Shown piece after piece: positions 17,856 to 28,458 of a stretch of 64,000 nt of DNA. Source of the stretch: Bixzunavirus cane17 (lineage: Duplodnaviria > Heunggongvirae > Uroviricota > Caudoviricetes); the IMG/VR virus record IMGVR_UViG_2974759174_000001; one strand, given 5' to 3'. The notes beneath the pieces are model-generated. The model had not been told where the DNA came from. It did not search any database and worked only from the letters and a program-made list of their open reading frames with translations. Each line of letters starts with the position of its first letter. Position 1 is the first letter of the stretch. Made by a program: the position numbers and the translations under genes.

Positions 17856-18190
17856 TGGTGGAGCTTGTCCTCTTCGACGAGTTGACCCCGCAGCAGCAGG
17901 AGGCCTGGCTGCACGACGAGGCCCTGGATATGGCGCACCGCTGGCTGCGCGGTCGGCGCCAGCGCGAGATGCTGGCCAAGATGTACCGCCACGAGCGCGT
18001 CTACGGCCCGCGCGGCTCGCGCTGGGGCTACAGTGCCGACCCGCGTCGGATACTCATCGCGCTGCTCAGCCGTGGTCTGGTGATCAAGTGCGACAGCGCG
18101 GTCCCGCCGCCGCGTCCGGGCCTGCAGCTCTGGCGTCTGAGCGACATGGGCCGTCGCACTGCCAAGATCATCGTCGAGGAGAAACTGTGA
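17855..18190 (+). CDS. hypothetical protein (111 aa)
   Basis: TGATG coupling. Confidence 0.6.
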   Translation: MVELVLFDELTPQQQEAWLHDEALDMAHRWLRGRRQREMLAKMYRHERVYGPRGSRWGYSADPRRILIALLSRGLVIKCDSAVPPPRPGLQLWRLSDMGRRTAKIIVEEKL

Positions 18191-18216
18191 AGATGTGGCA
18201 CGGGTCACATAACTCC

Positions 18217-18260
18217 GAGGAATGAGTCGCCCTACAGCAAGGTTATAGTGGGTGTAGCAC
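18217..18260 (+). promoter_or_regulatory. orphan copy of the promoter element (GAGGAATGAGTCGCCC, -10 TATAGT) with no CA-rich leader, RBS or ORF behind it
   Basis: family box plus TANNNT; downstream 450 bp is non-coding. Confidence 0.5.
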
Positions 18261-18700
18261 CGAACATCGACAACTCAAGAGAGCATCTGGACCACCGAGG
18301 CACCGTGCAAGTACCCCTGTGAAACATCCCCTGACGGCTAACGACCACGACCTCACCCCAGAGACCGGACCGAAAGGCCCCATCGCGATATACCCCAGCC
18401 ACGTGTGGCGGGGCCGGTGGGAACCAGCCCCAGAGAAGCCGGAGACGGGTGTGAGGCGACCCCTGAACGAAGGGATGTGGAGGGCGAAATCCGCCGCGAG
18501 AGAAGGTGAGGCCAAGAGCCATCGAGCGCGCCGACGGGCGCGGGAAGGATGGACAAGCGCCGCGTCAAACAGACAGGTCTAGTACCGATGGGAACCGGGG
18601 AGTGCGCACGAACCGGGGAGACTAGGGAACGAAACCGGCTGGCCAGATGCCCCCTTGGGTTGTCGATGTCGGCACCCACTACCACCACCCACCGAAAGGA
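18260..18700 (+). ncRNA. candidate non-coding RNA: 440-bp purine-rich non-coding stretch downstream of the orphan promoter
   Basis: the only ORF here (18319-18582) has about 24% A at codon position 3 versus under 10% in flanking genes; GA-rich with repeated GAACCGGGGAG units. Confidence 0.35.
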
Positions 18701-18707
18701 GGGCCGC

Positions 18708-18938
18708 ATGGCCCACAATGATCTGGTCAAGCTGGCCAGCGACCTCAACGAGAAGGCGTTCTCGGTCCGCGAGGACCTCGAACACCGGGTCGGCGACGTT
18801 CCTGCCGATCTGCTCGCCCTGCTGGCCGCTGTCGACGCCCTGACCGGCGCCGTGGTCGAGCTGGCCGCGACTGACGACGTCGCCACCGAACTCGAAGAGC
18901 TCAAGGCCAAGTTCGATCGCGTGCGGACCTGTCGGTGA
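18708..18938 (+). CDS. hypothetical protein (76 aa)
   Basis: RBS GAAAGGAGGG before ATG 18708. Confidence 0.6.
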   Translation: MAHNDLVKLASDLNEKAFSVREDLEHRVGDVPADLLALLAAVDALTGAVVELAATDDVATELEELKAKFDRVRTCR

Positions 18939-27580: not shown

Positions 27581-27663
27581 GGAGGGTGAGCATCAGGTGA
27601 TGCAGCGAGATTGCTAATCCCGTACGGTAACCACCCCGTGAGGTTCGAATCCTCCTCCCTCCG
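27581..27663 (+). tRNA. tRNA-Ser (anticodon GCU) with long variable arm
   Basis: acceptor GGAGGGT/TCCCTCC, T-arm GAGG-TTCGAAT-CCTC, anticodon loop TTGCTAA, variable arm ACGG-taaccacc-CCGT. Confidence 0.6.
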
Positions 27664-27689
27664 CGTAGTACATCCATGGAGGATGAAGC

Positions 27690-27735
27690 AGCCGCGTAGT
27701 GCGGCGACCGGATTCGAAACCCGGGTAGCGCGTCA
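27690..27735 (+). other. tRNA-like remnant (T-arm-like CCGGATTCGAAACCCGG) without a foldable acceptor stem
   Basis: T-loop-like sequence seen; no complementary acceptor found on either strand. Confidence 0.25.
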
Positions 27736-27856
27736 TGGCGCTTGGGGAGCGTGCCCTCCTTCCTCCGCTTGGGAGAAGAAACCGTCAAGGCTGACGGGAC
27801 CGCTTGGAAAGCGGCTCGTGGGTAACACCATGAGGATCGTGCCCTCTCTTCTCCGC

Positions 27857-27942
27857 GCCTCGGTGACGTAATGGAAGCCGTGCTGCACTCAGACTGCAGT
27901 GTCCGAAAGGGCGTGAGGGTTCGACTCCCTCCCGAGGTACCA
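27857..27942 (+). tRNA. tRNA-Leu (anticodon CAG) with long variable arm and encoded CCA
   Basis: acceptor GCCTCGG/CCGAGGT (G-U at 1-72), anticodon stem CTGCA/TGCAG perfect, loop CTCAGAC, T-arm GAGGG-TTCGACT-CCCTC, 3' ACCA. Confidence 0.7.
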
Positions 27943-27943
27943 A

Positions 27944-28016
27944 GCCCCTGTATCCCAACGGCAGAGGAAGCGGTCTGAGAGGCCGTTCAGTGAGGGTTCG
28001 AATCCCTCTGGGGGCA
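27944..28016 (+). tRNA. tRNA, type I (short variable arm); the anticodon loop reads CTGAGAG (GAG), so the isotype is ambiguous
   Basis: acceptor GCCCCTG/TGGGGGC, T-arm GAGGG-TTCGAAT-CCCTC; a Leu anticodon without a long arm is anomalous. Confidence 0.5.
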
Positions 28017-28017
28017 C

Positions 28018-28091
28018 GCCGCAGTATGCAAACCGGAAAAGCAGCCGTACTCAAAATGCGGTGCGTGCGGGTTCGATCCCCGCCTGCGGTA
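28018..28091 (+). tRNA. tRNA, type I; the anticodon loop reads CTCAAAA (CAA), so the isotype is ambiguous
   Basis: acceptor GCCGCAG/CTGCGGT, T-arm GCGGG-TTCGATC-CCCGC. Confidence 0.5.
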
Positions 28092-28458
28092 CTTTGGCTC
28101 GTTGACGTTGCTGCGCCTGGGTGTTGGCGGCAGTGCAGGCCTTGCACCGGCACTTGATCTTGGGGTTGCGATACCTCCCCACAGTTCCATGCTGGTGATA
28201 TCCCATGTCGTTCGCCGTCTTCTCCTGATGACAGGGCTCGCAAAGCACCTGACACTTGGTCAGCTCAGCTTCTCGCCGTGCGGCGCTCCAAGACCAGATC
28301 TTGTGGTCGACTTTCTGAGTCGGGTCGATGTGATCAAGTCGGAGATCTTCTGTGGCACCGCACTCCACACAGGACTTCCCTGCGAAGTACTCGGTTCGCC
28401 GTCGCGCCACCCATTCACGTTGATACTGGCGCTGGGCTTCGGGGTCCTTGTAGGGCAC
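28051..28458 (-). CDS. HNH homing endonuclease (135 aa); its 3' end overlaps the last tRNA on the opposite strand
   Basis: CVECG ... LDHIDP ... KCQVLCEPCH HNH motif; GTG start with GGGATAGGA RBS. Confidence 0.8.
   Translation of the reverse strand: MPYKDPEAQRQYQREWVARRRTEYFAGKSCVECGATEDLRLDHIDPTQKVDHKIWSWSAARREAELTKCQVLCEPCHQEKTANDMGYHQHGTVGRYRNPKIKCRCKACTAANTQAQQRQRAKVPQAGIEPARTAF

Follow-up and report, generated by a model that had tools for sequence, protein, structure and literature searches.

What lies between gp54 and gp56 of Mycobacterium phage Cane17 (Bixzunavirus, cluster C1; NC_054716.1), a myovirus with a 160-kb genome? In the window, the 64,000-nt stretch of DNA analyzed here (nt 1-64000 of that genome, to which the 1.6 kb around the locus are 100% identical at the same coordinates), the GenBank annotation ends gp54 at 18190 and places gp55 at 18319-18582 and gp56 at 18549-18938. 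A first-pass annotation of the same DNA had read this interval as a non-coding region behind an orphan promoter, either a structured RNA or an origin-like region. We are highly confident that 18264-18669 encodes a real, conserved structured RNA of a class absent from Rfam 15 and from the searchable literature. As an explanation of the whole locus we lean, on balance, towards a family of large structured RNAs of actinobacterial phages that pair with themselves and act in trans.

The annotated genes had first to be set against the sequence. Third-position GC was 0.85-0.95 in the neighboring genes and about 0.6-0.7 in all three phases between approximately 18190 and 18650, and 23% of the codons of the gp55 open reading frame (ORF) end in A (2-6% in neighboring genes), as do 23% of those in the gp56 extension at 18549-18707. 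A 1-nt insertion at 18327/18328 in phage Dandelion, which is otherwise 99.4% identical, frameshifts the gp55 ORF, and many related records (e.g., Bxz1, Rizal, ET08, Nappy and ScoobyDoobyDoo) annotate nothing in the region. These results bear out the first-pass claims that about 500 bp are non-coding up to the real start at 18708 and that about a quarter of the codons of the 18319-18582 ORF end in A. Its description of the + strand as GA-rich also held (purines make up 0.66-0.68 of 18400-18640 and 0.59 of 18257-18707; the whole window has 0.51), and the repeated GAACCGGGGAG units that it had listed are two exact copies (18592-18602 and 18610-18620), which form the two strands of the P5 hairpin stem described below (CCGG/CCGG, with GGAG after each). 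A protein-coding reading, with gp55 and/or a long gp56 from 18549 as in GenBank, can point to ORFs of 87 and 129 codons that are annotated in many records; yet codon periodicity is absent, codon usage is unlike that of the neighbors, the Dandelion insertion breaks the gp55 frame and substitutions track base pairing rather than codons, and we consider this reading extremely unlikely. The sequence from the promoter to the ATG at 18708 is non-coding. In Cane17 and about 200 related records, gp55 is probably not a gene and the gp56 start at 18549 is probably wrong, ATG 18708 with its ribosome-binding site (RBS) GAAAGGAGG fitting better.

In 201 cluster C1 phage records (BLAST) the 517-bp gap showed at least 99% identity, with the surrounding 1.6 kb at 95-99% in most of them. 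A diverged copy (67% identity) was found in Myrnavirus ScoobyDoobyDoo, where it occupies an unannotated gap of 540 bp among other genes and has a promoter of its own (TTGCAA-17-TACAAT). When the two copies were aligned, two blocks proved highly conserved and the ends formed a long helix with compensatory changes. Conserved blocks of this alignment served as search patterns for further members: a 22-mer pattern retrieved 18 IMG/VR contigs, second and third blocks added more, a gapped core pattern gave 27 matches, and 99 stretches were collected in metagenome contigs. A core covariance model (R1; 190 positions, covering P2-P5 only) recorded 103 matches, 89 of them distinct, over the fetched viral and metagenome loci. 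In the window, as in the whole Cane17 genome, R1 had exactly one match (18293-18508; 97.3 bits, E = 2e-23), in which both invariant loop strands are identical to the consensus; the Cane17 P5 hairpin lies after a 58-nt insertion beyond this match and was placed by eye. Across the family the element measures 223-406 nt (406 nt in Cane17). No match to the 22-mer was found in 185,579 bacterial and archaeal genomes, and the gapped core pattern matched once in the same genomes, although both scans required exact pattern matches and could miss a diverged host homologue. That single match lies on a 126-kb contig (L029; DATKWD010000002.1) labeled "Acidimicrobiales MAG" (metagenome-assembled genome), whose R1 score, length and flanking ORFs are the same as those of the IMG/VR viral contigs L030 and L044, and which is probably a phage genome binned into a MAG. 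When three different members were used as blastn queries against 50,697 cultured-phage records, only cluster C mycobacteriophages were recovered. Members lie in high-G+C phage contigs, their only cultured carriers being mycobacteriophages, and we regard the RNA family as phage-specific and as one of actinobacterial phages.

The modeled fold is a three-way junction of P1, P2 and P6, closed by a P1 of about 24 bp and carrying two arms. Arm 1 consists of P2, P2a, P3 and P4, with a 17/13-nt internal loop between P3 and P4 whose strands, CUGACGGYUAACGAYCA and AYCCCUGAAYGAA, are invariant; arm 2 consists of P6, P7, a symmetric 7/7 loop E-like internal loop and then the P5 hairpin. In Cane17 the parts are as follows.

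18264-18290, + strand: P1 5' arm ACAUCGACAACUCAAGAGAGCAUCUGG, inverted repeat I1, with compensatory changes relative to ScoobyDoobyDoo; it holds the boxA/boxC-like CGACAACUCAAGAG.
18293-18307, + strand: 5' strands of P2 (18293-18296) and P2a (18303-18307) with a conserved GAGGC loop between them, from the R1 match and pair counts.
18319-18582, + strand: GenBank gp55 ORF, which overlaps the RNA and is probably not a gene.
18324-18330, + strand: P3 5' strand ACAUCCC, pairing with 18472-18478 (7 of 7 pairs compensatory, 95.8% paired).
18331-18347, + strand: J3/4, the invariant internal-loop strand CUGACGGCUAACGACCA, with invariant columns in alignments A3, A4 and A5; the anchor of the collection scans.
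18348-18458, + strand: P4 arm, with base helix CGACCUCAC / GUGAGGCG (7 of 8 pairs compensatory) and a lineage-specific insertion of about 90 nt at 18358-18446 (92 nt in the cmsearch alignment).
18459-18471, + strand: J4/3, the invariant internal-loop strand ACCCCUGAACGAA, with invariant columns and an independent scan with the block.
18472-18508, + strand: P3 3' strand (18472-18478), small hairpin GGCGAAAUCCGCC, P2a 3' strand (18495-18500), conserved GAGAGAA and P2 3' strand (18505-18508), from the R1 match and pair counts.
18509-18566, + strand: lineage-specific insertion between P2 and the 3' domain, a G+C-rich hairpin; the cmsearch match ends at 18508 and the 3' domain resumes near 18567.
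18570-18641, + strand: 3' domain, with P6 (18570-18574/18637-18641), the 7/7 loop (GAUGGGA 18587-18593/GAGACUA 18618-18624) and the P5 stem (18595-18598/18613-18616).
18599-18612, + strand: P5 loop GGA-GUGCGCAC-GAA, with an 8-nt perfect palindrome at 18602-18609; the proposed kissing site.
18643-18669, + strand: P1 3' arm CCAGAUGCCCCCUUGGGUUGUCGAUGU, the inverted repeat paired with the 5' arm.

The two P1 arms of Cane17 (27 nt each) meet with three non-Watson-Crick positions; C18651 is specific to Cane17, and the U of its relatives restores an A-U pair. In short members P4 is a hairpin of 5-8 bp, often with a UGAGAA cap (GNRA-like), and the family consensus of the 7/7 loop is GAGAGUA/GAGGGUA, for which Cane17 has GAUGGGA/GAGACUA. 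Eight members (L073, L031, L120, L074, L080, L089, L005 and L115) have a second symmetric internal loop, with GAYRAUAG on both strands, between P6 and P7, which looks like another loop E-type motif stacked under the first.

Covariation across homologous phages, a check that the first-pass annotation had proposed, supports this fold as that of an RNA. RNAalifold returned 54-55 pairs from 15 and then 19 members, with compensatory changes in 41 and then 48 of them (48 of 55 in the larger set). On the R1 alignment, 94.5% of cells in the core helices were paired, compared with 31-44% when partners were slid, and 28 of the 32 core pairs showed double (compensatory) changes, values that 0 of 500 shuffles reached. 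G-U outnumbered A-C in the core helices by 159 to 47 (3.4 to 1), which identifies the + strand as the folding strand; this count and the pairing figures come from the alignment fitted to R1. The Cane17 sequence also folds more stably than its shuffles (z = -3.7). Outside the core, P1 was found in 74 of the 89 members (12-38 bp, median of 24 bp), its sequences unrelated between members, and the alignment of the 3' domain (A8) gave P5 94%, P7 88% and P6 64% paired, with compensatory changes in 11 of 12 pairs.

The same results bear on readings at the level of DNA, namely a replication origin, a packaging site, a protein-binding palindrome or a miniature transposon with the P1 arms as its terminal repeats. 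Inverted repeats of 27-34 nt do flank about 350 bp, the central 8-mer is palindromic in DNA too, and the gene contexts in Cane17 and ScoobyDoobyDoo differ. However, six internal helices covary, the excess of G-U over A-C makes sense only for a + strand RNA, the arm sequences are unrelated between members, unlike transposase-bound repeats, and the element occurs as a single Cane17 copy with no iterons and no AT-rich stretch. A DNA-level element is thus very improbable and already largely refuted, and the origin-like alternative of the first-pass annotation is not supported. Its structured RNA expressed from an early-type promoter is strongly supported by the 89 distinct members, their compensatory covariation, the strand-specific G-U pairs and the promoters upstream in unrelated phages; the regulatory role that it gave this RNA is putative. 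A miniature transposable element (e.g., the mycobacteriophage MPME) was considered separately and rejected, there being one Cane17 copy whose unconserved arms covary as RNA helices.

The P5 loop suggests how such an RNA might behave. It reads GGA-N8-GA(A/U), 13-14 nt long, and N8 is a perfect palindrome in most members (GUGCGCAC in Cane17, GUCAUGAC in ScoobyDoobyDoo, and GUGGCCAC, GGUGCAUC, GGUGCACC, GCGGCCGC, GCUGCAGC, GUUGCAAC, GAUGCAUC and GGCGCGCU in others). A self-complementary run of at least 8 nt was present in 81% of 81 distinct loops (9% of shuffled loops), with at least 12 different palindromes among them. The palindrome covaries at all four pair positions, the central dinucleotide included, and because adjacent central nucleotides cannot pair within one hairpin, this points to selection on pairing between two molecules. 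Calculated self-duplex energies were -13.7 kcal/mol for Cane17 and between -9 and -17 kcal/mol for members. A sub-group with a different 3' domain has kept the palindromic loop in the form of 6-mers (GUGCAC, GUAUAC and GUUAAC). Natural RNA homodimers usually form through palindromic or kissing contacts (PMC12990946), as do the OLE, ROOL and GOLLD assemblies (PMC12286853). We consider it probable that the RNA self-pairs through this loop; the palindrome implies intermolecular kissing, of which a homodimer would be the simplest form.

Other forms of self-pairing may occur in particular members. In L069 and L078 two tandem copies of the RNA carry the same loop palindrome and could therefore form heterodimers. 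An extra hairpin with the palindromic loop GGGGAGUCAUGACCC lies between P2 and the 3' domain in ScoobyDoobyDoo (L003 2720-2760) and in L013, where it is a possible second intermolecular contact. A sub-family with a different, longer 3' domain (...GCGGCUCAUAGUCACGGU-palindrome-...GUGACAGAGAGGACUGUUAGUAA...), which still has a palindromic loop, was seen in L087, L070, L060, L088, L093, L061 and L116.

Known dimerizing RNAs offer a likeness of mechanism only. The HIV-1 dimerization initiation site and the HYER1 and HYER5 ribozymes share a self-complementary loop stretch flanked by purines, and in the HYER family the members with a palindrome dimerize and those without do not (PMC12990946); here the stretch is 8 nt within a 13- to 14-nt loop (GGA-N8-GAW), and the rest of the RNA is unrelated. 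Like OLE, ROOL and GOLLD (Kretsch et al. 2025, PMC12286853), the present family consists of large non-coding RNAs of unassigned function with many conserved helices and with intermolecular kissing contacts conserved by covariation, although here such a contact is predicted from its sequence signature. There is no homology of sequence or structure to these three, the Cane17-type RNA is two to three times smaller, and its single palindromic loop per RNA predicts a dimer instead of a cage.

The proposed loop-loop pairing between copies also recalls the packaging RNA (pRNA) of phi29, which likewise has a long 5'/3' terminal helix, a three-way junction and an early-transcribed location in a phage genome, and the Cane17 RNA might be an analogous packaging-motor RNA. 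Assemblies of pRNA are mentioned in PMC12990946. In phi29, two different loops pair into rings, and such RNAs are confined to phi29-like podoviruses; the RNA described here has one self-complementary loop, which would give dimers and not rings, shows no homology to pRNA and has no Rfam pRNA match. Cane17, moreover, has the tail sheath and baseplate of a myovirus and a conventional large terminase, and the chance that its RNA serves a packaging motor is close to negligible.

Upstream of the RNA, the promoter element that the first-pass annotation had placed at 18217-18260 is present (GGAATGA plus GTTATAGT) and belongs to a family that was also recovered in a separate motif analysis of the window. 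The pattern GGAATGA-N15-17-GTTRxxxx has 10 copies in the window, all on the + strand, where 0.06 would be expected from shuffles, and the family layout is GGAATGA, 16 nt, a GTTATACT-like stretch, about 6 nt, a CA-rich leader, a Shine-Dalgarno sequence (SD) and ATG.

18219-18249, + strand: promoter element of phage type, with box GGAATGA (18219-18225), a 16-nt spacer and the extended -10-like GTTATAGT (18242-18249).
9305, 9629, 10944, 11463, 12256, 15896, 18219, 49903, 52861 and 58136, + strand: the promoter copies.
18673-18710, + strand: CA-rich leader (CACCCACTACCACCACCCACC, from 18673), RBS GAAAGGAGG (18695-18703) and gp56 ATG (18708), laid out as behind the other nine promoter copies; codon periodicity resumes here.

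Behind the other nine copies a CA-rich leader of about 20-25 nt and an SD precede an ATG some 60-70 nt past the box, whereas at 18219 the 406-nt element comes between promoter and CA leader; on this layout, an element has been placed between the promoter and its normal leader. The first-pass annotation was thus right that something other than a CA leader directly follows this copy, the RNA, but the promoter is not an orphan, since CA leader, RBS and gp56 come directly after the RNA and the promoter also serves gp56. From the -10 distance alone, the Cane17 RNA would start at about 18255-18258. Neither a sigma-70 consensus promoter nor an intrinsic terminator was found in 17900-18900, and no such terminator separates the RNA from gp56. 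A 10-copy promoter family lacking a TTGACA-type -35 suggests a phage-specific or modified sigma specificity. Several mRNAs from this family would begin with a small GUGUAAGACAC hairpin. It is also worth noting that the -10 region GGTTATAGTGGGTG (18241-18254) is 86% complementary to the CA leader CACCCACTACCACC (18673-18686) just after the RNA, so that P1 could gain 14 bp from this pairing if upstream transcripts read through.

Whether the RNA works where it is transcribed or elsewhere is addressed by its surroundings in other members. Promoter-like sequence was found just upstream in every member examined, including those of unrelated phages. The downstream genes are unrelated between members, and ORF clustering within 6 kb (43 and then about 89 loci) found no family common to more than 6 loci. 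Intrinsic terminators follow the RNA in two members and a new promoter follows it in one. Two diverged copies of the RNA occur on some metagenome contigs, with about 80 nt between them in L069 (4956-5148 and 5228-5412) and L078 (2175-2360 and 2443-2634; = L107) and about 1.4 kb in L094 (1-90 and 1515-1699). A tRNA or tmRNA was called nearby in only 3 of 32 loci, 100-900 nt downstream on three unrelated contigs (tmRNA-like L016 284-609, - strand; tmRNA-like L035 10219-10616, - strand; tRNA L015 629-712, + strand); the L035 tmRNA passes the Rfam threshold, and the L016 call, with an odd tag peptide, does not. ROOL and GOLLD are frequently carried by phages and close to tRNA genes, as are a few members here. 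Pfam models applied to the flanking Cane17 and ScoobyDoobyDoo proteins found only an RlaP nucleotidyltransferase, 2 kb upstream in ScoobyDoobyDoo; this protein (gene 6, L003 7-894; E = 4e-21) is of an RNA repair-associated family and is not linked to the RNA elsewhere.

A further feature of the surroundings is a boxA/boxC-like stretch in the P1 5' arm of about one-quarter to one-third of members. The boxA-like patterns YUYGAMAAC or UYGAVAACY occur within 60 nt upstream of the core in 19 of the 89 members (Cane17 has AUCGACAACU), and further members carry ACAACUSAAYAG. The stretch may resemble the boxA/boxC of mycobacterial rrn operons. It resembles the boxA of Escherichia coli rrn operons, UGCUCUUUA (PMC2724277). 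As in the leaders of pre-16S and pre-23S rRNA and in lambda nut, a promoter is followed by a boxA-like 5' strand of a helix of at least 20 bp that encloses structured RNA, although NusB/NusE binding and RNase III cleavage are putative here.

This arrangement is also what a cis-acting 5' leader would show, one that modifies the transcribing polymerase (rrn/nut- or put-type processive antitermination) or otherwise governs gp56 and the genes beyond it. The element always directly follows a promoter, in Cane17 it is inserted ahead of the normal CA leader with no terminator before gp56, about a third of members have it directly before an SD and ATG, and 19 of 89 have the boxA-like pattern. Yet it is hard to see what a conserved palindromic loop would do for an element that works in cis during transcription. 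In some members the RNA is followed by a terminator or a new promoter, or has tRNA or tmRNA genes around it, tandem copies exist and the boxA-like stretch is absent from most members. A cis leader therefore seems to us unlikely, though it is the rival to be taken most seriously. A stable particle acting in trans is, if only somewhat, the likelier way for the RNA to function, as supported by the unrelated downstream genes, the terminators, the new promoter, the tRNA and tmRNA neighbors and the tandem copies.

To place the RNA among known classes, Rfam 15 (4,227 models) was searched at gathering and at lenient thresholds, a search that had also been proposed at the outset, and no Rfam 15 family matched it. 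At the gathering threshold the whole window yielded only three tRNAs, which belong to a four-tRNA cluster at 27581-28092 (Ser-GCT, Leu-CAG, Leu-GAG and Leu-CAA). With E up to 10, only two chance-level 14-bit matches were returned for 18100-18800; the 3' domain alone and member L026 gave nothing relevant, and 20 other loci at the gathering threshold gave only the tmRNA elsewhere in L035. None of the riboswitch, ribozyme, 5S, pRNA, ROOL, GOLLD and OLE families of Rfam 15 matched (RF03087, RF01998 and RF01071 for ROOL, GOLLD and OLE).

The absence of any riboswitch or ribozyme match counts against a ligand-binding or catalytic RNA, in which the invariant 17/13-nt loop would serve as an aptamer, for instance one that soaks up a host metabolite or an immune second messenger, or as the core of a ribozyme. 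Invariant loops amid variable helices are typical of ligand pockets and active sites, and here the 89 distinct members differ little or not at all in the two loop strands but freely in the surrounding helices; P4, in addition, often ends in a GNRA-type loop. No conserved gene context points to a ligand, however, and invariant loops fit protein binding equally well, leaving this an improbable explanation.

The closest structural resemblance is to 5S rRNA, with which the RNA shares a symmetric 7/7 internal loop bearing the signature G-A-N-R-G-U-A on both strands (GAUGGUA/GAGAGUA in loop E of E. coli 5S). In both, the loop lies between a short helix and a terminal hairpin, in an arm of a three-way junction closed by a 5'/3' helix, and exact 13-mers GAGAGUAGGGAAC are common to E. 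coli 5S and two members. The assignment of the 7/7 loop as a loop E would rest on its sequence signature. 5S rRNA measures only about 120 nt, the RNA here is two to three times longer with an unrelated other arm, and the 5S model RF00001 had no match at E up to 10. A mimic of 5S, 16S or 23S rRNA was rejected, blastn-short of 75 members against E. coli rrnH reaching at most 26 bits (24-28 bits in shuffles); 8- to 14-mers shared with rRNA were noted by eye (GAGAGUAGGGAAC, AAGUACCCCGA and GCGAGYGAACGGGGAG), and only the loop E motif was kept as a structural resemblance. 6S and Ms1 RNA, the latter an RNA polymerase-binding RNA of the host genus, are abundant, measure about 200-300 nt and, like the RNA here, have their ends joined in a long helix. 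Those RNAs are rods with a central bubble, in contrast to the branched three-way junction here; scans of 185,579 species found the invariant core pattern in no Mycobacterium genome, and no link of the family to Ms1 was found in the searchable literature.

The account we favor, of a self-pairing RNA acting in trans, would run as follows. Transcription from the promoter at 18219-18249 would yield the Cane17 RNA as the opening 410 nt of the gp56 transcript. The long P1 helix would insulate the RNA and would probably be the stem at which a double-strand-specific (RNase III-type) activity cuts it free of the mRNA. Through their palindromic P5 loops, two molecules would then join into a symmetric homodimer, and early in infection this particle would engage a conserved host component in trans, by means of the invariant internal loop and the loop E motif. 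Several points weigh against this account. The transcription start, RNase III cleavage, dimerization and trans action are all inferred; a covariance-model alignment leans towards its own structure, and on the unguided alignment P6 was only 64% paired. An SD and start codon follow P1 within 30 nt in about a third of members, which also fits a cis leader, and since the neighborhood encodes no partner protein, any target is conjectural. No cluster C phage transcriptome was found in the searchable literature; motif sequences likewise led to no paper there, although most subscription journals lie outside it and a prior description is possible.

A bolder form of the same account extends it to maturation. 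The boxA-like stretch and the RNase III-length helix are arranged as in a miniature rRNA precursor, and the RNA may represent a new phage class that matures in this way (promoter, boxA-like signal and RNase III-length stem), forms a protein-free kissing dimer and captures a host factor early in infection through loop E and the invariant loop. Candidates for that factor are ribosomal and RNA-processing proteins, RNA polymerase and small-molecule immune signals. We put this forward as a speculation that is rather unlikely to be correct in full; if true, the RNA would be an RNA-based host-takeover or anti-defense device.

The Cane17 genome holds other loci of RNA interest. Outside the window, at NC_054716.1 132447-134460 (L145 19447-21460), a 550-amino-acid "RNA-binding protein" is followed by a 360-bp gap without an annotated gene; cluster C phages presumably encode a Ro-like protein, and a Y-RNA-like gene may lie in the gap. 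Other products of the genome are a peptidyl-tRNA hydrolase, an RF-1-domain protein, about 30 tRNAs and a tmRNA.

Few phages have been sequenced as often as the cluster C mycobacteriophages (Bxz1, I3 and about 200 others), in which this locus has been annotated as a hypothetical protein or as nothing; a conserved, complex RNA here corrects about 200 genome annotations and joins the very few classes of large structured RNA known from phages. From its conserved palindromic loop, dimerization by RNA alone can be predicted and tested, with a monomer predicted for the change of GUGCGCAC to GUGCCCAC, which is relevant to current work on natural RNA quaternary structure. Mycobacterium smegmatis, with established phage engineering, provides a genetically tractable model for the role of such RNAs, and the site formed by the invariant internal loop must have an important binding partner in the infected cell.

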